IMG/VR virus record: IMGVR_UViG_2802429245_000005 | Source: a virus | Lineage: Duplodnaviria; Heunggongvirae; Uroviricota; Caudoviricetes | DNA: 41,556 nucleotides | Direction: 5' to 3' (one strand) | Shown here: positions 1 through 41,556 of the stretch, in pieces | How the letters are laid out: each line of letters begins with the position of its first letter | Position numbering within the stretch: position 1 is the stretch's first letter | The notes under the pieces: model-generated | What the model was told of the DNA's origin: nothing | Seen by the model: the letters and a program-made list of their open reading frames with translations, nothing else | Database searches by the model: none | Made by a program: the position numbers and the translations under genes

Positions 1-516
1 ATGAAATTTAAAAAATGTTTTCTGCCTGTGGCAATTTTAGCGTCATTCACCCTGGCAGGATGCCAGTCAAATGCTGACGACCATGCCGCCGATGTCTATC
101 AAACCGATCAACTGAATACAAAGCAAGAAACTAAAACCGTTAATATTATCTCCATTCTTCCCGCAAAAGTTGCCGTAGATAACTCACAAAATAAACGGAA
201 TGCGCAAGCCTTTGGCGCACTTATTGGCGCTGTCGCAGGCGGCGTTATCGGCCATAACGTTGGATCTGGTAGTAACTCCGGAACAACGGCTGGTGCAGTT
301 GGTGGCGGAGCTGTAGGCGCGGCAGCGGGTACTATGGTGAATGATAAAACCTTAGTGGAAGGTGTCTCTTTAACTTATAAGGAAGGCACCAAAGTGTACA
401 CCTCCACCCAGGTGGGTAAAGAATGCCAGTTCACAACGGGTTTAGCCGTTGTTATTACCACCACTTATAACGAAACGCGTATTCAGCCAAATACAAAATG
501 TCCTGAAAAGAGCTAA
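1..516 (+). CDS. Outer-membrane lipoprotein with glycine-zipper region; probable host flank
   Basis: ATG at nt 1. N-terminus MKFKKCFLPVAILASFTLAGC has a lipobox (LAGC). Gly/Ala-rich GAVAGGVIGHNVG zipper. TAA stop at 514-516. Confidence 0.6.
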   Translation: MKFKKCFLPVAILASFTLAGCQSNADDHAADVYQTDQLNTKQETKTVNIISILPAKVAVDNSQNKRNAQAFGALIGAVAGGVIGHNVGSGSNSGTTAGAVGGGAVGAAAGTMVNDKTLVEGVSLTYKEGTKVYTSTQVGKECQFTTGLAVVITTTYNETRIQPNTKCPEKS

Positions 517-531
517 CTATCAGGAGGACTC

Positions 532-1074
532 ATGAAGAAAGTTTTTCTTTGCGCCGCCATATTAGCTGCTGTTAGTAGCCCGGCTTTCGCCTCTTCATTA
601 CAGGATCAACTCTCTGCGGTCGCAGAAGCTGAACAGCAAGGCAAAAATGAAGAACAAAGGCAGCATGACGAATGGGTTGCGGAGCGCAACAGGGAAATCC
701 AGCAAGAGAAGCAACGGCGCGCAAACGCTCAGGCCGCAGCGAATAAAAGAGCGGCAGCAGCAGCAGCGGATAAAAAAGCTCGCCAGGATAAACGGGACGC
801 CGAATTCACTGCGGATAAAAAGCGCGATCAAAGTTATGAAGATGAGCTGCGCAACTTAGAGATTCAGAAGCAAAAACTGGCGCTGGCAAAAGAAGAAGCG
901 CGCGTTAAGCGTGAGAACGAATTTATCGATCAGGAACTGAAACACAAAGCAGCGCAAACCGATGTTGTACAATCTGAAGCTGACGCTAACAGGAATATGA
1001 CTGAAGGTGGTCGTGATTTGATGAAAAGCGTGGGTAAAGCAGAAGAGAATAAATCAGACAGTTGGTTTAATTAA
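532..1074 (+). CDS. Secreted charged coiled-coil protein (signal peptide); probable host flank
   Basis: RBS AGGAGG at 523-528, ATG at 532. Signal-peptide-like N-terminus MKKVFLCAAILAAVSSPAFA. Lys/Glu/Arg/Ala-rich body. Confidence 0.55.
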   Translation: MKKVFLCAAILAAVSSPAFASSLQDQLSAVAEAEQQGKNEEQRQHDEWVAERNREIQQEKQRRANAQAAANKRAAAAAADKKARQDKRDAEFTADKKRDQSYEDELRNLEIQKQKLALAKEEARVKRENEFIDQELKHKAAQTDVVQSEADANRNMTEGGRDLMKSVGKAEENKSDSWFN

Positions 1075-3138: not shown

Positions 3139-3358
3139 GTTTTCCACCGTTTATATGCATAACTACCTCCTGAACAGTAAAGCATTATGCATGATAAACC
3201 ATTTATGGTTTTTTGTTACTTCAACATCGTCAATCCCCTGTTTTCATGCCGATAATAAGGCTCACCTTTTACATAACACTGAAGAAACAACAGTACAGAA
3301 ATGATTCAAACTATGGAGATCGGGTTGAATACCGCGCCATCAAATGGCGCGGTAGCGA

Positions 3359-3655
3359 TCAAATAGAGAAATAAATACAAAAACAAAAAATGACAGGAAC
3401 AGCAAAATCCAACAGACTTCCCACATCCCACACGCGTGGGTCAAAACCTCCCCACCATGGCATGTTGATACGTTTCCCTTTCCCAAACTTTTCTATCCAG
3501 CGATATTCTGCCTGGGTGTGTTCACGCGCAATGAAGAACGTACAACCGGCTATCGCACCGTAAGCCCAGTTTCCTGTTATTATTCCGAAGAAACATTGCA
3601 CAATTATTGATGCAATAGCATGGACAAAAGGAGAATAGTCAATATTATTCATCAT
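3359..3655 (-). CDS. Small integral membrane protein of unknown function
   Basis: ATG ATG at 3650-3655 preceded by GAAGGTG. About 98 aa, hydrophobic (IASIIVQCFFGIITG..., FAVPVIFCFCIYFSI). Followed by a 10-bp perfect-stem hairpin at 3331-3354. Confidence 0.45.
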   Translation of the reverse strand: MMNNIDYSPFVHAIASIIVQCFFGIITGNWAYGAIAGCTFFIAREHTQAEYRWIEKFGKGKRINMPWWGGFDPRVWDVGSLLDFAVPVIFCFCIYFSI

Positions 3656-3684
3656 AACACCTTCATGAATAAACCATATTCTGC

Positions 3685-6426
3685 TTACACAGCACAAATC
3701 CTGATCGTTGCTGTGATATCAGTTTCAGTGCCATTATTGAGATATAACCTACCGCCTACAATTGACATCCCAATTTTGGTAGAAACTTCTTCATCTGCAG
3801 ATGTCACCACCACGTTTGTTTTATTGTAATTACCAAGCGGAGATTCATCAGTCGAATGCCCTGGCCTCAATATCATTCCTACACCTGCAAAGAAATTAGG
3901 GTTCCCATTATTTATAACATCCACACAATAAGATAATGCGCTTTTACTAAGTGGGATGGATTGACTTGTATGTGCCTTAACCCACATTTCCCATACGTAT
4001 TCACTTTTACGTATCGCCCCCTCACATGAACCAGATGCATGGAATAACTTTCCTGATGATACAGTGTTATTGGTGCCAACAAGAATCATCTGATTTCCAC
4101 CACCAAAGCCAAAGTTATCACCAAGAGATGGTCCACCATTAATCCTTAACATATATGCATCAGTACTGCCTGATGAGGCGTCAGAGTTATCTATATATAC
4201 AGTGCAATCACTTATAAGAACGCCATCAATCTTATCTGGCGCAACAGTATTAGTTTGGACAACGACGAACTCTCTGGTGGTAGATTTTGCCGAACAACCT
4301 TTAATAATTGTTGGTGTTTCAAGAGTATATGTTTGAGTAATAAAAATGAAATTACTAGGACGAAGCTTCCGATTAACAGCATTTGTTGCTTTCCACCATT
4401 TATTGCTTGATTCGGTTGTTTCGCTAAAGCCATCAATATAGTGAGTATCGGTAATAGTAATTCCGCTACCATAATACAAACGAATCGGAAGGTTGCTAAA
4501 TCCTCTAATCTCGCAACCAGATACTATCTCATTAAAACCACGTATAGTTGCGCCATAAAAACAGTCAACTGCCACATTGTCTTTATATTTAGACTCTGCG
4601 GCACCACCATGACTACCAAACCCATAGGAAAATTCAGTCCATCCTTCCGATGGAAATATAATCCCACCAGTATAACCAGTTCCGCCACCACGCATTGTAA
4701 TGTTGGTTACATTATTGTAGAGAGAACTCCAGTTACTCCCTCCAATATCAACACCACGCCTACAACAAGATGCATTGATATTGTCCACAGTGCAGTAACT
4801 GCTATTGGAAACAGAAACAGCATTACCTGTACCACCATCACCATTGAAAACTCTATTGATTCCATACAGAGATGTATCACGAACAGTGCATCTTAAGCAG
4901 CCTAACAAGGTAATCCCAGCATTCGGGAAATTTTCCACACTAGCGAAACTGGCAATACCGTTTACGCAATATTCGAAGACAACCCCATCATAAGCTTTTT
5001 GTCCGCTAGTTGCATTGGTAACTAACCCGTGTATCGTCCCAACATGAAAATCTCCAGAAATATTAAATGTAGCAGGATAGACAGCCCAGGCCTCAGCTTG
5101 CCTAACCAAACGAAATGTATCTCCTGCAGCAGGTTTATTTGGGAATCCAGTGTCAGCATTACTACCAATAGTAAATGTTTTTGTGTCATCATCATATGCT
5201 GTAACCATTTTGGTTATACCAGCATTATCTCCCGTTAATCCAAGAATTTTATAGAGTGCATCACGAGGTGGTGATGTCACTGAGAAATTTGTAGATGTAA
5301 ATGATTGCCCACTAGATGCGCCAGTAACTGTAACTGTAATATTCCCTCCTGAACGGTAGTAATAATATGCATCCTGATCTAATGTCACATTATTTCCACT
5401 AAGTGAAACGACTTCAACAATTTGCCCTTCCTGCCAACTTCCTCGGTTATCTCCACGAACAAGGTGGTTATTACGAATAACAAGCAAATCTCCGACAGAA
5501 ATATCAGACACATCATCAAGAGTCACAGTCTTTTCGCCCAATGATATATCTCTCGTTATGAAATTATGCAATTTAGTACTTGCAATTCCACCAAGCTTTA
5601 TTGCTGAACCTTCATATCCTACAACATTATTTGTGCAGAGCAATTCAACCTTTCCTGATGCCACCCAATCGAAGCAACCATATGGAATGGAAATATCTAT
5701 TTGTGAAAACAGGTACTTTCCTGCTGTCCATTCCAAACGCTTTCCGTTAGATGCGCAGTAAATGATGGCATTTGTTATTGCGTCTGTATCGTCAGTAATG
5801 CCATCCCCTTTTGCACCAAAATCGCGAACATTGACGATATCCCGCATCTTATCCTGGAACGTTCTGTATACTGCTCCAGAACCATACTGAATAAACAAAC
5901 CAAAACCACCAACAACTCCGGCGATTGCAGCATCGACATAATTACGCATTGAGCGATTATTTACAGCATCCTGCTCAAGTGATGGATCTGCAAGGTTAGA
6001 AATTCTGTTTTGTTTTGCATCGTAATATTTTGCAAGCAGAGAGGGCTTCATCAATGCACGTCTGAACCACCCAAAACATTGCTGGATCAGCATCGTCAGA
6101 TAGTCAAAGGCATCCTCATGCACTTCGGGGAAAAATTTTCCCTGATTGCGAAGGTCTGTCTCCTGCACTACATCAAGCACACGATCTATCGTAATTCGCC
6201 ATCCAGCAGCAAGCGGAGACGGAAGAACCACAGAACCGCCACTATAAGTGCCCGCCCCAGTTACCGTATAACCGGTATCCAGAACCAATTCTGTTACGTT
6301 CCCGTTCAGGTCAGACACCTGAACAACCAGGTCTGATTTTCTGAAAATTCGAAAAGTATACGGAAACGATGTCGTAACGCCGTTACCTGTGTATTCGTTG
6401 TGGTCAACTTCGGTTGAGACCGTCAT
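3685..6426 (-). CDS. Tailspike with N-terminal virion-attachment domain and pectate-lyase-like beta-helix receptor-binding/depolymerase domain
   Basis: 913 aa. RBS GGAG 9 nt upstream of ATG (6424-6426). VRDFGAKGDGITDDTDAI motif typical of right-handed beta-helix glycanases. Downstream two-thirds is AT-rich by eye. Confidence 0.85.
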   Translation of the reverse strand: MTVSTEVDHNEYTGNGVTTSFPYTFRIFRKSDLVVQVSDLNGNVTELVLDTGYTVTGAGTYSGGSVVLPSPLAAGWRITIDRVLDVVQETDLRNQGKFFPEVHEDAFDYLTMLIQQCFGWFRRALMKPSLLAKYYDAKQNRISNLADPSLEQDAVNNRSMRNYVDAAIAGVVGGFGLFIQYGSGAVYRTFQDKMRDIVNVRDFGAKGDGITDDTDAITNAIIYCASNGKRLEWTAGKYLFSQIDISIPYGCFDWVASGKVELLCTNNVVGYEGSAIKLGGIASTKLHNFITRDISLGEKTVTLDDVSDISVGDLLVIRNNHLVRGDNRGSWQEGQIVEVVSLSGNNVTLDQDAYYYYRSGGNITVTVTGASSGQSFTSTNFSVTSPPRDALYKILGLTGDNAGITKMVTAYDDDTKTFTIGSNADTGFPNKPAAGDTFRLVRQAEAWAVYPATFNISGDFHVGTIHGLVTNATSGQKAYDGVVFEYCVNGIASFASVENFPNAGITLLGCLRCTVRDTSLYGINRVFNGDGGTGNAVSVSNSSYCTVDNINASCCRRGVDIGGSNWSSLYNNVTNITMRGGGTGYTGGIIFPSEGWTEFSYGFGSHGGAAESKYKDNVAVDCFYGATIRGFNEIVSGCEIRGFSNLPIRLYYGSGITITDTHYIDGFSETTESSNKWWKATNAVNRKLRPSNFIFITQTYTLETPTIIKGCSAKSTTREFVVVQTNTVAPDKIDGVLISDCTVYIDNSDASSGSTDAYMLRINGGPSLGDNFGFGGGNQMILVGTNNTVSSGKLFHASGSCEGAIRKSEYVWEMWVKAHTSQSIPLSKSALSYCVDVINNGNPNFFAGVGMILRPGHSTDESPLGNYNKTNVVVTSADEEVSTKIGMSIVGGRLYLNNGTETDITATIRICAV

Positions 6427-6530
6427 GTTAAATCTCCAGATAGTCGCAGCACCCGTTGCGCCGCATATCTGGTTATTCTATTACCTGAAAAACCACATAT
6501 GGATAGAAAGACTGTAAATACGAATAGATA

Positions 6531-6545
6531 TTACCTTTCAGGTAA
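6531..6545. promoter_or_regulatory. Palindromic operator-like site TTACCTTTCAGGTAA
   Basis: Exact TTACC-N5-GGTAA between the divergent tailspike (start 6426) and gene 6622. Confidence 0.6.
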
Positions 6546-6621
6546 TTTGCAAAACGTGCTGGATAGCAAACAAATTATTTGCTACTGTATAAATATACAG
6601 TTATTGCATGGAGAAGATAAG

Positions 6622-6879
6622 ATGCAGCAGTATCACTATCCACTGGAAGACGGATTTACCGAAAGGATTCACACGCCGGGAGGCGTCAGATCACTGGTGG
6701 AGGGATCGCACTTGATGAAATTACTCCGGGATCTCGATAAGGATGGATTTAATGTCGATGGCCCACTTGCCGAACTGACTGCACTGATTAACTACGTCAC
6801 CAGCTCACAGATGTCTATGCAGGATCTGCAAACACATCTCGACTATTGTGCCGAACAATTACGAAAACAAACCCGGTAA
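6622..6879 (+). CDS. Small protein homologous to the C-terminal domain of the BRO-N antirepressor at 8028-8723
   Basis: ATG at 6622 with GGAGAAG upstream. Aligns with the antirepressor C-terminus (LMKLLRDLDKDGFNVDGPLAELT...DLQTHLDY versus LMNLLNQLQEDGHDVSGAAAELT...DIQTHAEY). Confidence 0.55.
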   Translation: MQQYHYPLEDGFTERIHTPGGVRSLVEGSHLMKLLRDLDKDGFNVDGPLAELTALINYVTSSQMSMQDLQTHLDYCAEQLRKQTR

Positions 6880-6886
6880 ATTTAAA

Positions 6887-6902
6887 GGCCGCAAGAGCGG
6901 CC
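6887..6902. terminator. Hairpin between convergent genes 6622-6879 and 6902-7630 (possible bidirectional terminator)
   Basis: GGCCGC-AAGA-GCGGCC with T-rich flanks on both strands. Confidence 0.4.
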
Positions 6903-7630
6903 TATCGTTTCGCTTTGTGCTCGTCCCAGCACGTTTTGCACCATGCCATTAAGCCGTCCGCATTTTGATTATTAGGGTAAAAGCTGGTTCGTTTTCTGCG
7001 GACATTACAAATTGGGCACCACTTCATATGACGTGTATTCTTTGGGCCATCGAGACACCTTGCACACCACTTAGTCAATCCATCTGGATTTTTTGACGAT
7101 TTCCTGAATTTTTCATATGGAAGGTTTATTCTGCATCGCAAGCACTGCTTGCTACCGCTTGAAACTCTGTTAGCTGATTCTTCTTTTGGCGGCGATACAG
7201 AAGATATTCTTGCTGGCTCTGATACTGCCTGAGGTGCTTTTTTAAATGACTGAGACGATATGTCATCACCAGGGAATCTTCCATGATATGCCGGACGCGT
7301 TGACACTCCAGGTGGAAGCTCAGCTGTAAACGGCTTTGGCTGAATCAGTTGCCTCTCTTTTGCTAACTCCTGCTGTTTATAATATGTCTGGATTACCGCA
7401 CTATCATAAGCAGGAGGTGCGGAAATATTAGGCGCATTACCTCCAGTTTTTTGAAACTGAGTAGAGGTGTGTTCTATCACCTGTGTACGATTAATCGTTA
7501 TCTCCCCATCTTCGGTCTTTATCGTTTTGTTATGATTAACGACCGTACGATCAGAGATCTTAGTCTTGTTCTGGTTGATAACGTAAATAATCACCGTAAC
7601 CACACCAACAACTATCCAGAAAACTTCCAT
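6902..7630 (-). CDS. Membrane-anchored protein with two tandem CxxC...WCxxC zinc-ribbon-like repeats
   Basis: RBS GAGGAAAAG before ATG (7628-7630). N-terminal TM helix, Pro/Ser-rich linker, repeats CLRCR...DGLTKWCARC and CPICN...DGLMAWCKTC. Operator motif at 7651-7665. Confidence 0.6.
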   Translation of the reverse strand: MEVFWIVVGVVTVIIYVINQNKTKISDRTVVNHNKTIKTEDGEITINRTQVIEHTSTQFQKTGGNAPNISAPPAYDSAVIQTYYKQQELAKERQLIQPKPFTAELPPGVSTRPAYHGRFPGDDISSQSFKKAPQAVSEPARISSVSPPKEESANRVSSGSKQCLRCRINLPYEKFRKSSKNPDGLTKWCARCLDGPKNTRHMKWCPICNVRRKRTSFYPNNQNADGLMAWCKTCWDEHKAKR

Positions 7631-7650: not shown

Positions 7651-7665
7651 TTACCTTAAAGGTAA
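7651..7665. promoter_or_regulatory. Palindromic operator-like site TTACCTTAAAGGTAA
   Basis: Exact motif 21 nt upstream of the start of minus-strand gene 6902-7630. Confidence 0.6.
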
Positions 7666-7743
7666 TATCTTGCTTTCAGGTGATCAAGCATTAAACGCAA
7701 CCAACCAAATACGGTTGATTTTAATATTTATTCGCGTTTATCA

Positions 7744-7792: not shown

Positions 7793-7816
7793 GGGCACTG
7801 GCAAAATCCAGTGCCG
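7793..7816 (+). other. Perfect 8-bp stem-loop (GGCACTGG / CCAGTGCC) in the antirepressor leader
   Basis: Read directly; lies between the operator at 7744 and the terminator at 7851. Confidence 0.5.
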
Positions 7817-7850
7817 GGATTGGCGTCCCGGATTACTAAAAGGCGCATTC

Positions 7851-7870
7851 ACCGCGCAAGCGGTTTTTTT
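7851..7870 (+). terminator. Intrinsic terminator-like hairpin plus T7 tract in the antirepressor leader
   Basis: ACCGC-GCAA-GCGGT followed by TTTTTTT. Confidence 0.5.
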
Positions 7871-8027
7871 ATGCGTATAGCACGGCCACATTCGTATTAT
7901 GGTGGGCTGTGTGGGGGCACCGAAAGGTGCGCCGGGTCCTTTTAGCCGGTTACGCCAACCCTGCACAGTTCACCACCAACCGATTGGCGTCGGTAGTGGT
8001 GATTAACCAGACTAAAAGGTAACCACT

Positions 8028-8723
8028 ATGACAGCTACAAAAAGCACGTCCATTTTTTCTTTCGAATCCCAAGCCGATATACGGGTAATCGTCATTAATG
8101 GTGAGCCATGGTTTATCGCTTCAGATGTTTGTCGGGCTATAGGCATAGCAAACCATCGAGATGCTGTTCGAAAACTTGATGATGATGAGAAGGGCGTCGC
8201 TTCAACCGACACCCCTGGCGGTGAGCAAGAATCGATCATTATCTCCGAGTCAGGCCTCTACACACTGATCCTCCGCTGCCGCGATGCGGTGACACCAGGC
8301 ACTATCCCCTACCGCTTTCGTAAATGGGTTACAGGTGAGGTTCTTCCTCAGATCCGCCGCACCGGAAGTTACATTAAAAACTCGCTCCCGCAGGAAGAAC
8401 GCATAAAGATGGTTGCCGACCAGGTTGCCAACGCCACGGCGTCAGCAGTAATGCAGGCGATGAAGATAGAGAACAAAACCTACAGCGCCCCGCTGAAGCC
8501 AGGATACCGCAGTCTGATTCACTCGCCGTCTGGTGTTCTCGGCCTGACGGAGAACTCACTGCTGATGAATCTGCTGAACCAGTTACAGGAAGACGGGCAT
8601 GATGTATCGGGCGCGGCGGCGGAGCTGACCACCATGTTCTGCTACATCGTCGGTGTGAGTAAATGCCTGCGTGATATCCAGACGCATGCGGAGTACATCA
8701 ACGACAAGGCTGGGTTCTTCTGA
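8028..8723 (+). CDS. Antirepressor, BRO-N (Ant-type) N-terminal domain plus C-terminal domain
   Basis: N-terminus FSFESQADIRVIVINGEPWFIASDVCRAIGIANHRDAVRKLDDDEKG matches the Bro-N fold signature. RBS AAGG before ATG at 8028. Confidence 0.8.
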   Translation: MTATKSTSIFSFESQADIRVIVINGEPWFIASDVCRAIGIANHRDAVRKLDDDEKGVASTDTPGGEQESIIISESGLYTLILRCRDAVTPGTIPYRFRKWVTGEVLPQIRRTGSYIKNSLPQEERIKMVADQVANATASAVMQAMKIENKTYSAPLKPGYRSLIHSPSGVLGLTENSLLMNLLNQLQEDGHDVSGAAAELTTMFCYIVGVSKCLRDIQTHAEYINDKAGFF

Positions 8724-8830: not shown

Positions 8831-9040
8831 ATGGGATTTTGGTTCGCTCGTACAAAAACGAGGGATAATGCACCCAGCCCTCAGGCAAAAAATGCAGAAG
8901 TTCCGGCGTCAGCGCAGGTTAACAAGCGTGGTGGAGTATATATCTCATCACAGCAAATTTCTGAGCTTCCTGAGGTTAAGGAGATGCGTCGTCTCGCTGC
9001 TGCAATTGTTAAACAGGATCTTGCCACTGTAAGGAAGTAG
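8831..9040 (+). CDS. Small hydrophilic protein, first gene of an operator-controlled accessory cassette
   Basis: Strong RBS GAGGAGGAG before ATG at 8831. Operator motif at 8790-8804. Stop TAG overlaps the GTG of the next ORF. Confidence 0.55.
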   Translation: MGFWFARTKTRDNAPSPQAKNAEVPASAQVNKRGGVYISSQQISELPEVKEMRRLAAAIVKQDLATVRK

Positions 9041-9906
9041 TGTTGCTAGCTCTTCTAATTATCCCAATCCTGGTTAGCGGTTATATTATGATAACCGCTA
9101 ACCAGTATCATTATTTCCGTTTATACCGACACGAAGGCCAGCTTCTTTATATGAAAGTAGCGGCACTAGGTACATATTGCCTTGTTGCATCAGTAATAAT
9201 TGCAGCCGCTATAAAATATAAATGGCCTGATTTTCACCTAGTTCACGATATGGTGGAAACTTTTAATGTAACATCAAAACCAGAAACAGATAGAATTTAC
9301 ATGTGGCTGCTTCTTCTCTCAGCCACATCCATTTGCTTCTCTTTGTGTTATGTGTCTGTTGTGTGGGTGAAAGATTTTCTTCTTGGTTGTTTTTATAAAC
9401 GTGATATTTACGAGCAAAAAACAGAGGCAATGAAGGCCAGAGTACTGCGAAAAACTTACTCGCAGGGTTCTTTAGACTTACTATTGCTTGATGCTATTGA
9501 ATCGGATCCTAAACGACCAATGCTGATTACTTTATCATCAAACAAAGTGTATGTTGGAATAATAAATGGTTCTGGTGAACCAACGGAAAATCAGGGTCCG
9601 CATCAGCACATATCTTTTGTTCCTTTAATGTCAGGATACAGGAACAAAGAAAACTTATCTGTCACATTCACTAATGCTTATCCAGGAGAAATACAGGTCA
9701 AGCGGACTGCAGCAATAAGAGGAATTAGCAGAAAGAAAGTGCCAGGACTTGAGATCATGGTGTCTATTGACGAAATAAGTTATATATCATGGTTTGATTT
9801 TGAAGTATATAAAGCAACAAATAACAAAGTAGAATCCAGGGGGCACGTTATTCGTGTTACCAAAAATGGAAGAAATATATATCAAAGAAATAGCAAAAAA
9901 GAATAG
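9040..9906 (+). CDS. AT-rich integral membrane protein (three N-terminal TM helices plus soluble C-terminal domain); accessory gene
   Basis: 288 aa ORF. GTG at 9040 is coupled to the upstream stop; alternative ATG at 9088 lies in the loop of an 11-bp inverted repeat. AT-rich by eye. Intrinsic terminator directly after the stop. Confidence 0.6.
   Translation: MLLALLIIPILVSGYIMITANQYHYFRLYRHEGQLLYMKVAALGTYCLVASVIIAAAIKYKWPDFHLVHDMVETFNVTSKPETDRIYMWLLLLSATSICFSLCYVSVVWVKDFLLGCFYKRDIYEQKTEAMKARVLRKTYSQGSLDLLLLDAIESDPKRPMLITLSSNKVYVGIINGSGEPTENQGPHQHISFVPLMSGYRNKENLSVTFTNAYPGEIQVKRTAAIRGISRKKVPGLEIMVSIDEISYISWFDFEVYKATNNKVESRGHVIRVTKNGRNIYQRNSKKE
9074..9101 (+). other. 11-bp perfect inverted repeat around a candidate start codon
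   Basis: TTAGCGGTTAT-ATTATG-ATAACCGCTAA; the ATG at 9088-9090 is in the loop. Confidence 0.5.
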
Positions 9907-10189: not shown

Positions 10190-11041
10190 TCACTGTGCAG
10201 TTTTCGCTGATCGATTTTCAGCTCTAAATTCAAGAACCGTTTCAATATTTCTTTCCTTCAGCATATCAATAACATTTTTATTCATTTGACTATCACTGGT
10301 TAATAACTGGTAAACGTTGCTTCTCTCTTTATCAGAGTTTTCTTTAACAGCTGCTTTGCATGCCAAATGCTTATTGAAATTTTCTACATCGCTAGTACAG
10401 GAATTTACGGCTGCTGATGAAATATCAGACGCTGAAGAAACACCATCATCCAAACGTTTTATAGCATTTTCTATACATGAGTTAAGGGAATAAACGACAA
10501 CTGAGCGATACCCTTCAGACGCACACCATTCTAAATTTCTTGAAGGATCGAGTGGTTTTACTTCGCTGGATTGAATTAACTTGTCAAAAACTGACTTATA
10601 TTCAATCTGTTTTTTATCTATAGCCCATACTTCAGTAGCTGATTTATAATTCCCCGTATGCCTATTAACATCAAATCCATGTTTTATAAGCAAATCTGCC
10701 CATGAAAGATTTATTGATTCATTGTTATGAGGCCATTTTCCTGTCAGAACCGCCCCCATAGACCCCATATATCCGCCATATGATGGTATAGCACCATGGC
10801 TCAGTAACTTCTCAGCAACCACAGGGCAATTAATTACATAAGAGGCGTAAAGCCCATTCCATAAAGCCCCTCTATAGTAATCGCCACGATTAGGTTCTTT
10901 TAAGTCGATAGCCTTTGATAATTGTTCACACGTTTTGCATGCATCAAAGTTATCCTTATTGCATTGCAATGAACTGGCAGCTGTAGGATTTACAGAGACT
11001 ATTGAAAGCACTATGCCAAAAAACAAATTTATTTTTTTCAT
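10190..11041 (-). CDS. AT-rich secreted/periplasmic protein of unknown function
   Basis: N-terminal signal peptide MKKINLFFGIVLSIVSVNPTAAS. Start codon sits 1 nt after the stop of the upstream 1129-aa virion protein gene. AT-rich by eye. Confidence 0.6.
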   Translation of the reverse strand: MKKINLFFGIVLSIVSVNPTAASSLQCNKDNFDACKTCEQLSKAIDLKEPNRGDYYRGALWNGLYASYVINCPVVAEKLLSHGAIPSYGGYMGSMGAVLTGKWPHNNESINLSWADLLIKHGFDVNRHTGNYKSATEVWAIDKKQIEYKSVFDKLIQSSEVKPLDPSRNLEWCASEGYRSVVVYSLNSCIENAIKRLDDGVSSASDISSAAVNSCTSDVENFNKHLACKAAVKENSDKERSNVYQLLTSDSQMNKNVIDMLKERNIETVLEFRAENRSAKTAQ

Positions 11042-26395: not shown

Positions 26396-26485
26396 ATCAA
26401 TGACTCCGTACGCAATTAAATTATTACCAATTTAACCACATATGATTTATTTATCGTAGATAGTTGACATTTAACGCACGAATTA

Positions 26486-26500
26486 TTACCTTTCAGGTAA
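26486..26500. promoter_or_regulatory. Palindromic operator-like site TTACCTTTCAGGTAA
   Basis: Exact motif next to TTGACA (26464-26469), upstream of the tRNA region. Confidence 0.6.
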
Positions 26501-26822: not shown

Positions 26823-26899
26823 GTGGCATTAGCTCAGCTGGACAGAGCAACCGCCTTCTAAGCGGTTGGTCGCAGGTTCGAATCCTGCATGCCACGCCA
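26823..26899 (+). tRNA. tRNA-Arg, anticodon UCU (reads AGA), phage-encoded
   Basis: Cloverleaf read directly: acceptor GTGGCAT/ATGCCAC, D-arm GCTC-AGCTGGACA-GAGC, anticodon stem ACCGC/GCGGT with loop CTTCTAA, T-arm GCAGG-TTCGAAT-CCTGC, discriminator G and encoded CCA. Confidence 0.85.
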
Positions 26900-27149: not shown

Positions 27150-27755
27150 ATGTTCGAGCAATTTAAAGAGATCGCATCATCGGCTATTAGCACAACGTCA
27201 GAGAGAGTCCGCAACCCAGCACTTGGGGCATTTGTGTTTTCGTGGTGTTCTTTTAACTGGAATCCACTATTATTTTTATTCTTCAGTAAGTCAGGAATTG
27301 AAGAAAAAATAAATTATATATCTTCCCATAGTGATGCGTACCACTCACTCTTATATCCAGCTTTATGTGCATTCGCGCTGTGTGTAATAGTTCCATGGTT
27401 TAACAATATAGTGGTGATGTTTCAAAAAATTCCACTACAGAACATCGATAACTTCAAACACAACAAAAGCCTCAGGGATGTTAAAAACGCCATAGAATTG
27501 CGTAAGCTTGAGGCACAAAGGGACATTACATACGACAGAGTTAAGGTTGAGTTTGAGTCTGAGATTCAATTCTATAAAAATGATTTAATCAAGCACCAAG
27601 AGTCTTTGAATTCTTTTTTGCAGGAAAGAGATTCCCTTATTGAAAAAATAATGGCGCTTGAAAAAGAACTTGCAGAAGAAAAAATAAAATCCAATACCAG
27701 AATTGCAAATAAGTTTAACTCAAGGAACAATCGCAACACAGACAATGCTGCTTAA
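27150..27755 (+). CDS. AT-rich membrane protein with C-terminal coiled coil; accessory gene
   Basis: 201 aa on the strand opposite to the flanking late genes. Two hydrophobic segments then a heptad-like Glu/Lys-rich tail. Operator motif at 27103-27117. Confidence 0.6.
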   Translation: MFEQFKEIASSAISTTSERVRNPALGAFVFSWCSFNWNPLLFLFFSKSGIEEKINYISSHSDAYHSLLYPALCAFALCVIVPWFNNIVVMFQKIPLQNIDNFKHNKSLRDVKNAIELRKLEAQRDITYDRVKVEFESEIQFYKNDLIKHQESLNSFLQERDSLIEKIMALEKELAEEKIKSNTRIANKFNSRNNRNTDNAA

Positions 27756-35279: not shown

Positions 35280-35357
35280 TTTTTCCGCCCCTTTTTGTTA
35301 TTGATATTGGCTATTTTGCACAATTGGAAAATTTGATCAACCAGATTTGGTTTTTTA

Positions 35358-35812: not shown

Positions 35813-36397
35813 ATGAAAAGTATCCAGGACGTCCGCAGGCAAAATCTCAACGACTTGATCGACCGTGAATTCAATGGTGTTCAGACGCGGATGGCAGAAA
35901 AACTTGGAACTCAGGCAAATCTGGTAAACCGCTGGGCTCTTGGCAAGAAGGTTATCGGCGACCAGGTTGCGCGAAAAATTGAAGCTGCCGCCAATAAACC
36001 CCGTAACTGGCTTGATATCGATCGCTCGCTTTCTCAGGAAGGTTTTCAGCCTGTCGGCCCAAGCGACATTGGTCAGCTGGCGGCTCACAACCTGGAACGC
36101 TGGATGAGCGAAAGCCGCGACCTTTCAACACAGGGAAAACTTCACCGCGCATCCGGCGTCGCCCAGGTAACAATCAGCCGCCTGTTAAACAATGAGGTCA
36201 GCGTTTCCATTTCCACCCTGGAGAATGTTGCATCCGCATTCGGGCGTCACGGCTATGAATTACTGATTCACCCGCACGACCCTGCGACCATCAACTATGA
36301 CCGCTCGCGCTACGCATTGTTACCCGAAACCGAGAAAGCAAAGATCGAAAGTTACATTGAATTTGTCATCAACCAGAACGAAAAAAATAAACAATAA
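35813..36397 (+). CDS. Repressor-like protein with two XRE-type HTH domains (candidate lysogeny repressor)
   Basis: 194 aa with two HTH-like segments and no S24 peptidase domain. Monocistronic: strong terminator at 36418-36444. Operator motifs cluster between it and the cro-like gene. Confidence 0.7.
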   Translation: MKSIQDVRRQNLNDLIDREFNGVQTRMAEKLGTQANLVNRWALGKKVIGDQVARKIEAAANKPRNWLDIDRSLSQEGFQPVGPSDIGQLAAHNLERWMSESRDLSTQGKLHRASGVAQVTISRLLNNEVSVSISTLENVASAFGRHGYELLIHPHDPATINYDRSRYALLPETEKAKIESYIEFVINQNEKNKQ

Positions 36398-40305: not shown

Positions 40306-41556
40306 TTATTCTCCCGCCATCCACTTCTCAAACTTCGACGGGGAGAACGGAATCAAATCCGTATGCTCCCCGTTAATCCAGGAATCAATCATATCGGCCC
40401 ACTGCTGCAACATGTAGGCGCGCTGTCTGGCGTATTCCGCTTTGTTATATACGGCGCGCACACTTTTCTGCTCATGTGCCAGGGCCTTTTCAATCCAGTC
40501 TGAAGGATAACCAGCCTCATGCAACAACGTACTGGCTGTACGGCGCATATCGTGTACGGTGAAGTCCTGAATATGCTCACCATCTTCATTTATTATTTTC
40601 ACCGTTCTGTCGATCAGAGAGTTCAGCGCGGCATTAGATAATGGCTTCCGGAAGTTGTAACGACCAGGAACCAGATATTCACTTCCACCAGCGCACATCT
40701 GCAACCCGACCAATATATCCTGTGCCTGTTTAGGCAGGTAAATAACGTGCGCCCGGCTTCCCTTCATGCGGTCTGAAGGAATTGTCCATGTCCATTTTTT
40801 AAAATCTATTTCATCCCACGTTGCATTGGTGAATTCGCCTTTACGAACCATGGTGATAAGCACCAGCTTTAAAGCCATTTTCATAGTGCCCATAGCACCA
40901 ATGGCATCCAGCGTGCGGAAGAACAGGCCAACTTCTTCTGGTGTCAGTGTTCGCTCTCGTGGTTTAAATATGGCGATAGACGAAGGTTTAATGTCAGCCG
41001 CAGGATTAAACAAACCATGACCACGGTCATTGGCGTGACGGTATACGCTGCTGATGATCTCCCTGGCCTGCACTGCTGTTGCCCGGCCACCGCGTTCGAC
41101 AATCCGGTCACACAAATCACGAACCATCGATGTGGTAATTTCAGCCATCATTTTGTTGCCAAGAACCGGAAGTATGTCACGGTCGATCACTGCCTTCTTC
41201 ATTGCGCGGGTACTTTCAGCAAGGATGACGTGTTTCATATAACTGTCGGTATGTACCGTAAACGTCTCGGCACCACGAATCTTTTTGATACCGTCACGTT
41301 TAGCCGCAGCCGGTGACTGGCCTGCTTTAAGCAGCTTTTTTGCAGCAATCAGTTCTTCCCGCGCTTCTGCCAGGCTGATACCGTCACGCCCATACTGCCC
41401 GATTACCAGTGTTTCGCGGCGACCGTTGATACGGTAGTCATAGCGAAATGAGACCGTACCTGACGTAAGCACAGCTACATACAGCCCGTCACGATCGGAG
41501 ACTTTGTACAGTTTGTCCTGCGGCTTGAGGTTTTTTAATTTTGTATCGGTAAGCAC
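40306..41556 (-). CDS. int: Tyrosine integrase (P4-like family); 5' end at or beyond the window edge
   Basis: N-terminus (M)LTDTKLKNLKPQDKLYKVSDRDGLYVAV matches the P4-type integrase N-terminal domain. C-terminal catalytic region with HDMRRT and Y. ORF runs to the last base; the first codon in the window is GTG. Confidence 0.85.
   Translation of the reverse strand: MLTDTKLKNLKPQDKLYKVSDRDGLYVAVLTSGTVSFRYDYRINGRRETLVIGQYGRDGISLAEAREELIAAKKLLKAGQSPAAAKRDGIKKIRGAETFTVHTDSYMKHVILAESTRAMKKAVIDRDILPVLGNKMMAEITTSMVRDLCDRIVERGGRATAVQAREIISSVYRHANDRGHGLFNPAADIKPSSIAIFKPRERTLTPEEVGLFFRTLDAIGAMGTMKMALKLVLITMVRKGEFTNATWDEIDFKKWTWTIPSDRMKGSRAHVIYLPKQAQDILVGLQMCAGGSEYLVPGRYNFRKPLSNAALNSLIDRTVKIINEDGEHIQDFTVHDMRRTASTLLHEAGYPSDWIEKALAHEQKSVRAVYNKAEYARQRAYMLQQWADMIDSWINGEHTDLIPFSPSKFEKWMAGE

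Follow-up and report, generated by a model that had tools for sequence, protein, structure and literature searches.

Tailspikes of the Uetakevirus type are known from several podoviruses, such as epsilon15 (gp20), phiV10 (gp25), ZX5 (ORF7), and SPC32H (Tsp), which share with the locus described here the same N-terminal module and a gene position divergent from the antirepressor gene ant. For SPC32H, ant and a lysis-lysogeny switch were reportedly described by Kim and Ryu in 2013, with ant said to be LexA-controlled, and structures of the SPC32H Rep-Ant system are 5D4Z and 5D50. Here we examine a tailspike gene of this kind and its leader in the virus record IMGVR_UViG_2802429245_000005 of IMG/VR, a 41,556-nt sequence of a tailed virus (Caudoviricetes) that was analyzed over its full length (hereafter the window, with positions counted from its first letter). 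An earlier reading of these letters alone (the sequence-only reading) had proposed that the tailspike is mosaic and that its leader holds an inverted repeat that might modulate translation. Our analysis shows that the tailspike gene is a recombinant, in which a lineage-conserved virion anchor is joined to a horizontally exchanged, AT-rich beta-helix module, and that its leader is occupied by a hairpin whose pairing is under selection. The explanation that we favor overall, with moderate confidence, is a mosaic tailspike with its own promoter and a stabilizing hairpin close to the 5' end of its transcript, where we infer the promoter, the transcript end, and the role of the hairpin.

The window represents a whole Escherichia coli Uetakevirus prophage, a temperate podovirus like phiV10 and epsilon15, because its structural block is 97-98% identical to those of E. 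coli Uetakeviruses such as EC.W1-9, phiv142-3, phiV10, TL-2011b, and ZX5. The tailspike agrees in position and N-terminus with phiV10 gp25, epsilon15 gp20, and the ZX5 tail protein, and the gene can be divided as follows:

3685-6426, minus strand: tailspike gene, 913 amino acids (aa), from the open reading frame list, with matches to PHROG tail and tailspike families and to Pfam PF12708 and PF24149
5839-6426, minus strand: N-terminal virion-anchor module, aa 1-196, of backbone-like composition and conserved in Uetakevirus relatives
5707-5838, minus strand: junction zone, aa 197-240, which holds the conserved DFGAKGDG..TDDT start of the beta-helix and is where the homology of relatives stops
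3578-5764, minus strand: exchanged cassette, made up of the AT-rich beta-helix receptor-binding/depolymerase module plus the 3' end of the gene and ~108 nt beyond it

The first part of the protein is the conserved virion-binding module of Uetakevirus-type tailspikes. Residues 1 to ~196 are common to all Uetakeviruses, and residues 1-120 are 74-81% identical to those of five Uetakevirus-type phages (phiV10, Tyrion, epsilon15, SPC32H, and a Klebsiella phage). Identity to ZX5 is at least 88% up to aa ~200 and below 40% beyond this point, while a tailspike common in E. coli prophages (P0012) is 95-100% identical up to aa ~200, 88% identical over aa 201-240, and 20-50% identical thereafter. Residues 1-165/245 alone match more than 15 different PHROG tail families, and the N-terminus also matches that of the solved Klebsiella depolymerases Dpo31/Dpo36 in the PDB (E 1.9e-31). 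At the DNA level, homology stops at 5839 (ZX5) or 5765 (EC.W1-9) and resumes at 3577. The left-hand breakpoints are 5839, 5765, and ~5705, and the right-hand one, 3577, falls within the first codons of the downstream 99-aa gene. Within the junction zone, G207, D208, D212, and T214 are invariant across all relatives of the receptor-binding part.

Beyond the junction the relatives are different ones. For residues 197-913, megablast found no near-identical DNA among 50,697 phage records and 5,426 complete genomes of E. coli, and the best tblastn match of the receptor-binding part among phages (Bacillus phage Mater) reaches only 25.6% identity. In a metagenome-derived protein collection, the module was found at 96% identity with the same N-terminus, and BLASTP with the receptor-binding part as query also recovered it at 70-84% identity behind at least four unrelated N-termini. 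At 48% identity it occurs behind the P22 head-binding domain (PF09008) and behind another adaptor; the relatives P0001-P0011 have other N-termini, and there are at least six other adaptors in total. The neighbors of these genes are equally varied, as some carriers of the module adjoin a tape-measure gene (siphovirus-like) or genes for baseplate J and sheath initiator (myovirus-like), and others adjoin P22 gp7/gp20/gp16 and mnt/arc (P22-like). The N- and C-terminal parts therefore have different sets of relatives separated by sharp breakpoints, as is the case for mosaic receptor-binding proteins, and a single shared history of the two modules is contradicted. The alignments further indicate that the receptor-binding part is itself mosaic, because one relative (P0002) is 98-100% identical over residues 321-640 and differs at both ends, while the last ~70 residues match only P0001.

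The suggestion of domain swapping in a host-range determinant had been based on base composition, and here it finds its strong support in the homology breakpoints. The composition itself is as had been described, with a backbone-like N-terminal region near 6426 and an AT-rich receptor-binding portion. Codons 1-115 have a GC content of 0.484, against 0.4785 for the window, and a GC content at third codon positions (GC3) of 0.478, within the range of 0.42-0.59 of the large structural genes; codons 116-196 are intermediate (GC3 0.33), and codons 197-913 have a GC content of 0.401 and a GC3 of 0.283 (0.265 for aa 241-840). The GC3 contrast is clear (Fisher's exact p = 5e-5), whereas a single change-point in raw GC over the whole gene, at aa ~132, is marginal, as 19 of 300 codon shuffles reach it. 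Composition alone would for this reason be weak evidence of mosaicism, and it is GC3 together with homology that gives a clear answer.

The predicted fold of the exchanged part agrees with a receptor-binding role. An AlphaFold2 model built from these relatives has block means of the predicted local distance difference test mostly of 75-95 for aa 195-913, with a poor N-terminus, and Foldseek ranks depolymerases and tailspikes with a right-handed beta-helix as its best PDB matches (probability 1.00, E down to 4e-14). Together with the PF12708 and PF24149 matches, this identifies the right-handed beta-helix domain that the sequence-only reading had expected, and the module is predicted to be a depolymerase that sets receptor specificity. 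Tailspike mosaicism is well known in podoviruses, and the exchange is ordinary in this respect; the receptor-binding part found here is a rare variant.

The leader of this recombinant gene, whose ATG is at 6426, is largely taken up by one stem-loop in the tailspike-sense RNA:

6436-6472, minus strand: leader stem-loop, with outer helix 6466-6472/6436-6442 and inner helix 6458-6465/6445-6452
6453-6457 and 6443-6444, minus strand: the loop (AACGG) and the bulge of this stem-loop
6434-6437, minus strand: Shine-Dalgarno sequence (SD) GGAG, 7 nt before the ATG; G6437 and G6436 form the last two pairs of the outer helix

The inverted repeat that had been pointed out, CCAGATA (6472-6466) and TATCTGG (6442-6436) at 23 nt from each other with a 2-nt overlap with GGAG, is exact in all of its coordinates on the minus strand. 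A bare 7-nt inverted repeat is unremarkable, as about one per few hundred nucleotides is estimated from the length of the window. This repeat is only the base of a larger structure: the sense RNA folds as CCAGAUA-UGCGGCGC-[AACGG]-GUGCUGCG-AC-UAUCUGG, a stem of 15 bp with three G.U pairs and one 2-nt bulge. The 7-nt pairing had thus been seen correctly, while the full helix had been missed, as had a LexA box and the ant gene nearby (see below). The stable structure that the proposal depended on is predicted, as a 45-nt segment has a minimum free energy of -20.9 kcal/mol. Among 27,674 windows scanned over the two strands, this value falls in the top 0.17%, and the hairpin ranks about 19th in stability among the distinct sites of the 41.5 kb. 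The surrounding 101-nt region has a z-score of -2.78 relative to dinucleotide shuffles, of which 1 in 200 is as stable. Rfam gave no match at the hairpin, either for the whole window at the gathering threshold or for 6380-6640 at permissive E-values (best 21 bits, against a threshold of 100).

Conservation of this structure is far stronger than that of its surroundings. Among 66 distinct E. coli-clade haplotypes, nucleotide diversity is 0.0025 in the 37-nt hairpin (three singleton sites) and 0.123 at third positions of the adjacent tailspike codons, so that the hairpin is ~50-fold less polymorphic than adjacent synonymous sites; the spacer between the upstream operator and palindrome (0.134) and the N5 spacer (0.164) are similarly diverse. 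Two of the three singletons retain pairing, with A6470G giving a G.U pair and U6451C turning G.U into G-C. A pattern scan of IMG/VR recovered 34 related distinct leaders, in which the A6470-U6438 pair is replaced by G.U in 12 contigs and by G-C in one more (L189), and in which different lineages have pairings of their own (CGGUA/UGCCG, CGGU(AG)/(UU)AUCG, UCCGG/CCGGA, GGAUGG/CUAUCC, CAGAUG/CAUCUG, and AUCUCC/GGAGAU). Features common to these leaders are a helix start just past a promoter-like block, a helix end at the SD, and a GC-rich apical stem with an NNYGG loop. The register of the outer helices varies between lineages and indels put the arms out of alignment, which is why column covariation recovers little here, and alignment-free tests were used in its place. 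The 11 nt that follow the block are more complementary to the 17 nt next to the SD than expected from shuffles, with p <= 0.08 in 8 of 12 lineages (Fisher p = 1e-4, or about 0.005 by hand calculation when only independent arm types are used). When 5' and 3' halves were swapped between lineages, the cognate halves summed to -357.1 kcal/mol, compared with -310.6 +/- 10.7 for permuted halves, and none of 20,000 permutations reached the observed value. The p-values of both tests are indicative and not exact because the lineages are related and not fully independent. These results show a stable, evolutionarily maintained helix and selection for its pairing, including compensatory changes across genera.

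The strand on which the element acts is suggested by its pairs. Owing to its G.U pairs, the sense RNA is more stable than its complement (-22.4 vs -18.1 in the window and -21.7 vs -13.4 in phiV10, and likewise in several other lineages), the plus-strand version of the hairpin is weakened by A.C mismatches, and the arms are only 71% complementary at the DNA level. This G.U-driven asymmetry and the low complementarity of the DNA point to an element that acts as tailspike-sense RNA, and not as a DNA palindrome or plus-strand element. If the hairpin were instead a protein-binding palindrome of the promoter/operator complex, the invariance of all its positions in E. coli and the density of operators in this region would be accounted for, and it is also the case that AACCAGATATG (6474-6464) is an inverted copy of CATATGTGGTT (6501-6491), which is one of three perfect CATATNNGGTT sites in the window. 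However, the epsilon15, Tyrion, and Klebsiella lineages have no such inverted copy, and the substitutions that have occurred keep the pairing of the RNA, G.U intermediates included, where the arms as DNA do not pair fully. We consider binding at the DNA level to be highly improbable.

Between the hairpin and the divergent ant gene, which is separated from the tailspike by a 195-nt spacer, lies a control region with the following features:

6475-6485, minus strand: invariant GGTAATAGAAT, an operator half-site GGTAAT[A] that overlaps the -10-like hexamers TAATAG and TAGAAT
6491-6504, minus strand: 14-bp near-palindrome ATCCATATGTGGTT of the AACCA-N4-TGGTT family, at the place expected for a -35 element
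6530-6546, no strand assigned: Rep operator ATTACCTGAAAGGTAAT, with TTACC-N5-GGTAA at 6531-6545
6585-6600, no strand assigned: LexA-box-like CTGTATAAATATACAG, a perfect pattern 21 nt upstream of ant that is conserved in relatives
6622-6879, plus strand: ant, 85-aa antirepressor, divergent from the tailspike (PDB 5d50_E, SPC32H anti-repressor, E 4.1e-47)
6886-6903, minus strand: terminator-like hairpin between orf242 (minus) and ant (plus)

The element GGTAATAGAAT is invariant in all enterobacterial relatives, with zero variable sites among the E. coli-clade haplotypes, and it ends a block, (T/C)CATAT-NN-GGTT-N5-GGTAATAGAAT, that lies between the operator and the hairpin and is invariant from Escherichia to Klebsiella, Citrobacter, and Enterobacter. 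A second copy of the block is found at 26418-26444, upstream of a small open reading frame and the portal gene, with an identical operator 42 nt upstream of it, compared with 30 nt at the tailspike. The AACCA-N4-TGGTT motif has 11 hits with at most one mismatch in the window, where 1.35 would be expected, and these include sites upstream of the portal operon (26434-26447), the holin gene (3197-3210), and orf242 (7703-7716), as well as one in the immunity region (35339-35352); it may be the site of a regulator or late activator. A scan of 6427-6620 with the sigma-70 consensus found no canonical promoter. Nevertheless, the tailspike most likely has its own promoter at 6475-6504, judging from this arrangement, because the oppositely oriented ant cuts the tailspike off from the remaining structural genes, a terminator-like hairpin is located further upstream, and the block recurs before the portal operon.

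The operator placed at 6531-6545, just upstream, by the sequence-only reading is well supported. TTACC-N5-GGTAA occurs 16 times in the window, mostly in intergenic positions, where 0.75 would be expected, a homologous site upstream of the tailspike is annotated in the epsilon15 GenBank record as a repressor-binding site followed by a site for integration host factor, and the window encodes a Rep orthologue at 35813-36397 (PDB 5d50_A, E 4e-42), as in phages of the epsilon15/SPC32H type. The sequence TTTCAGGTAAT (6480-6490) is an exact 11-nt inverted copy of one half of this operator (6536-6546), and the portal block likewise has an operator half-copy (26424-26438 vs 26486-26500). From the center of the half-copy to the full operator the distance is ~50 bp at the tailspike and 62 bp at the portal, roughly whole helical turns, and in epsilon15 the site for integration host factor is annotated between the two. 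This spacing would fit looping by a tetrameric Rep.

If transcripts from further upstream entered the tailspike gene, two other roles for the hairpin could be considered. One is that of a transcription attenuator or degenerate terminator that limits such read-through, comparable to that of P22 gene 9. It would be in keeping with the GC-rich apical stem (GCGC-N5-GCGC) and with distant Pseudomonas relatives, which have canonical terminators with T-runs at the position of the hairpin, after a co-directional gene, and which may hint at its origin. However, there is no U-tract in any enterobacterial lineage (the tails are AGAUUUAAC and AGAAAAUGA), a terminator scan of both strands did not list the hairpin, and a better terminator is already present upstream at 6886-6903. 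The lower helix moreover covaries with SD-proximal sequence, which a terminator does not need. We rejected the hairpin as an intrinsic terminator, and attenuation in the wider sense is very improbable. The other role is that of an RNase III processing site in a longer RNA, of the kind found in the lambda N leader and the T7 intergenic sites, where cleavage would free the SD or make a stable 5' end. In an RNA started upstream, the helix extends to ~19 bp (GAAU/AUUU, 7 bp, and 8 bp) with an internal loop that encloses the AG of the SD, and strict sequence conservation fits a site recognized by a protein. The 15-bp helix is nonetheless short for an enzyme whose sites have about 20 bp or more of double-stranded RNA, often with an internal loop, the additional GAAU/AUUU pairs are not conserved in epsilon15, Tyrion, and other lineages, and the upstream terminator argues against abundant read-through. 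We therefore give very little credence to RNase III processing.

The overlap with the SD was the basis for the original proposal that the repeat could modulate translation. Spelled out as a translational operator, this would mean that sequestration of the SD throttles tailspike synthesis or switches it through temperature, a protein, or ribosome standby. The 3' arm does always end at or inside the SD, by a variable extent, and some relatives pair the whole SD, namely a Klebsiella phage (AUCUCC/GGAGAU), the Erwinia prophage L012, and Proteus prophages, the last with a different hairpin whose 10-bp stem covers GAGGAG. A conserved apical loop could also be a site for a protein, and opening UGGAGA costs 6.6-8.0 kcal/mol with the 5' arm of the helix present. 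In the window itself, however, only two of the four SD bases are paired: with the 5' arm in the RNA, the probabilities of being unpaired are 0.00, 0.01, 0.96, and 0.92 for G, G, A, and G, and for the AUG as well as the final A and G of the SD the predicted value is at least 0.83. Full sequestration of the SD and start codon, as in a translational operator or RNA thermometer, is found only in some relatives. Overlap with the SD is 0 nt in Tyrion, 1 nt in L007, 2 nt in the window, 3 nt in epsilon15 and SPC32H, and up to 6 nt elsewhere. Because of this range and the free SD bases and AUG, occlusion of the SD is partial and is not the conserved feature. Furthermore, if transcription started 6-9 nt past TAGAAT, the bases that pair with the SD would be left untranscribed, and opening would cost only 2.4-3.5 kcal/mol. 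A translational operator is thus possible but unlikely. In the Proteus relatives (L017-L019), the divergent ant-tailspike layout is kept together with an unrelated 10-bp hairpin (UCAUAUCCUC...GAGGAGAUGA) ~45 nt before the ATG, whose CCUC anti-SD pairs with the whole GAGGAG ribosome-binding site.

We favor a model in which the tailspike would be transcribed from its own Rep-controlled promoter at ~6475-6504 and in which the leader between this promoter and the SD would be almost wholly one 15-bp stem-loop of the sense RNA. Such a 5'-proximal hairpin could shield the long AU-rich tailspike mRNA from decay that depends on the 5' end, and insulation or mild damping of the ribosome-binding site may come with it as a side effect or as fine-tuning, as the first two SD bases would cost ~4-8 kcal/mol to open with the full helix in place. 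The position of the helix fits this model, since in each of the 34 leaders it starts 1-4 nt past TAGAAT, with nt 3 as the starting point in about two thirds of them when the dot-bracket structures are read. When the holin and orf242 units are aligned by hand on the AACCA-N4-TGGTT palindrome, their near-consensus -10 hexamers (CATAAT and TTTAAT) fall where the tailspike has TAATAG, and a start 6-8 nt past TAATAG would be at 6472-6470, the first bases of the helix.

Besides the relatedness of the lineages, several observations weigh against this model. A canonical -10 at TAGAAT would put the start at 6466-6469, inside the 5' arm, and the covarying pairs 6470-6472 would therefore be absent from the transcript; a start 7 nt downstream of this hexamer conflicts with the covariation at nt 3-5 past it. 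The model thus requires TAATAG as the -10, a non-canonical promoter, or a read-through RNA. The portal operon has a promoter of the same class without such a hairpin, and an alignment of 14 lineages with MAFFT and RNAalifold retained only an invariant 3-bp core and no column covariation. All 37 nt are invariant in E. coli save for the singletons, loop and bulge included, which is more than structure predicts, and the last two Gs of the NNYGG loop and the G that follows are invariant across genera. Lastly, within the literature that we could reach, we found no paper on the leader of a Uetakevirus tailspike and no experimental data on it. The annotations of epsilon15, phiV10, Tyrion, SPC32H, and ZX5 do not describe a leader, and the ZX5 paper gives promoters by software prediction only and does not mention the leader. 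The hairpin appears to be undescribed and of modest novelty.

The conservation of the loop and bulge, which a 5'-proximal hairpin does not explain, leaves room for a trans-acting factor. The NNYGG loop and the bulge could make the hairpin a post-transcriptional element that is bound by a phage or host factor and gates tailspike synthesis, in combination with an undescribed AACCA-N4-TGGTT promoter class shared by the tailspike, portal, holin, and orf242 units. We regard this combination as quite improbable.

Several other elements surround the control region. Rfam matches at gathering level are present for isrK (77.9 bits; 7795-7870, plus strand) and for C4 antisense RNA (77.7 bits; 7895-7980, plus strand), directly upstream of a Bro-N antirepressor gene (8028-8723, plus strand), which resembles the immI module of P1. 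C4 is predicted to pair with the leader of this gene (p = 0.018), as expected; targeting of the tailspike leader by the C4-like and isrK-like RNAs was considered and rejected (p = 0.23 and 0.16). The C-terminal 80 residues of the 231-aa Bro-N protein, which is encoded behind the C4-like RNA, are a second Ant domain (PHROG 450), so that two antirepressors under separate control may exist for a single Rep. A 242-aa gene that phiV10 lacks (orf242; 6902-7630, minus strand; PHROG 6762) is inserted between ant and the C4 region and is flanked by operators at 7651 and 7744. Its product has C-terminal zinc-ribbon-like repeats and weak matches to Stc1, endonuclease VII, and Lar-like proteins, and no match by PADLOC.

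Features at the ends of the window and downstream of the tailspike are the following:

1-516 and 40306-41556, window ends: TraT-like lipoprotein gene and tyrosine integrase gene
3359-3658, minus strand: membrane-protein gene, 99 aa, downstream of the tailspike (PHROG 1443)

The DNA of the 99-aa gene is 88-97% identical in seven other phage records (Gally, JEP4, HZ41, vB_EcoP-611R6, IdasGreatGrand, mEp460_4F5, and ev243). The glycine-zipper/TraT-like lipoprotein gene (1-516, plus strand) is followed by a DUF5384 gene (532-1074, plus strand) at the end opposite the integrase, and both are candidates for lysogenic-conversion or exclusion genes. Two AT-rich genes, 9040-9906 (plus strand) and 10190-11041 (minus strand), with a GC content of 0.37 and a GC3 of about 0.29, sit between the antirepressor region and the genes for internal virion proteins. 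They belong to PHROGs 3630 and 6118 and had no match in Pfam or in a PADLOC run on the AT-rich genes of this neighborhood, and they are probably accessory cargo. A tRNA-Arg gene (anticodon TCT; 26823-26899, plus strand) and a 201-aa gene (27150-27755, plus strand) interrupt the structural operon from the other strand. They are located between its terminase and portal genes, immediately upstream of the site where the promoter block occurs a second time.

As the receptor-binding part was not seen in the phage genomes and complete E. coli genomes that were searched, its target is probably an O-antigen or capsule type that has no characterized tailspike so far, and it could be useful for typing or depolymerase work. 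The occurrence of the module behind seven or more adaptors and in all three tail morphotypes makes it a clear worked example of plug-and-play exchange of host range, with an exchange junction that maps to the DFGAKGDG motif. Both the promoter-like block and the hairpin of the leader remain attached to the conserved docking end of the gene, and chimeric tailspikes engineered for Uetakeviruses should retain 6427-6504 unchanged. Should the hairpin prove to be a stabilizer or a translational regulator, it would be a small addition to late-gene control in phages, with no new principle involved.

Compared with known systems, the gene belongs to the family of Uetakevirus tailspikes, as judged from N-terminal module, position, and fold. 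The upstream operator, promoter-like block, and hairpin are also present in the other phages of this group; the receptor-binding module, in contrast, is unrelated to theirs, with less than 40% identity past aa ~200. Its right-handed parallel beta-helix is shared with solved depolymerases and tailspikes (Klebsiella K64-1 S2-4 9k4a, the K1 lyase 7w1c, LKA1 gp49 4ru4, phi297 gp61, AP22 gp54, Sf6, and HK620), with template modeling scores by target of 0.43-0.55 for most of the top 13 matches, but sequence identity is only 9-15% and the N-terminal adaptor is different. In the case of the K1 lyase, there is also a Pfam match of the tailspike to the "Rider" insertion domain.

By sequence, the control region matches the Rep-Ant-LexA arrangement of SPC32H and epsilon15. 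Orthologues of Ant and Rep are present, the space from ant to the tailspike contains both a LexA box and the TTACC-N5-GGTAA operator, the homologue of ant is annotated as such in SPC32H, and the Ant orthologue together with its CTGT-N8-ACAG box is what would be expected of a LexA-controlled small antirepressor of the SPC32H type. The prophage in the window differs in having an additional Bro-N-fused Ant behind C4/isrK-like RNAs.

The hairpin itself lacks the defining properties of a terminator and of an operator that fully sequesters the SD. A terminator is said to have been found ahead of the P22 tail protein gene 9 by Berget, Poteete, and Sauer in 1983, and there too the hairpin lies directly upstream of a podovirus tailspike next to an ant immunity region; the hairpin described here, however, has no U-tract, and ant is transcribed away from the tailspike. 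By analogy, it behaves more like the stem-loops of 5' leaders, such as stabilizers of the ompA type and structures that partially occlude the SD. The ompA leader was reportedly described as a 5'-terminal stabilizing stem-loop by Emory, Bouvet, and Belasco in 1992. Both are stable stem-loops at or near the 5' end and upstream of the SD, with the 5' end of the tailspike transcript being a predicted one, while in the tailspike leader the loop and bulge are conserved in sequence and the helix reaches into the SD.

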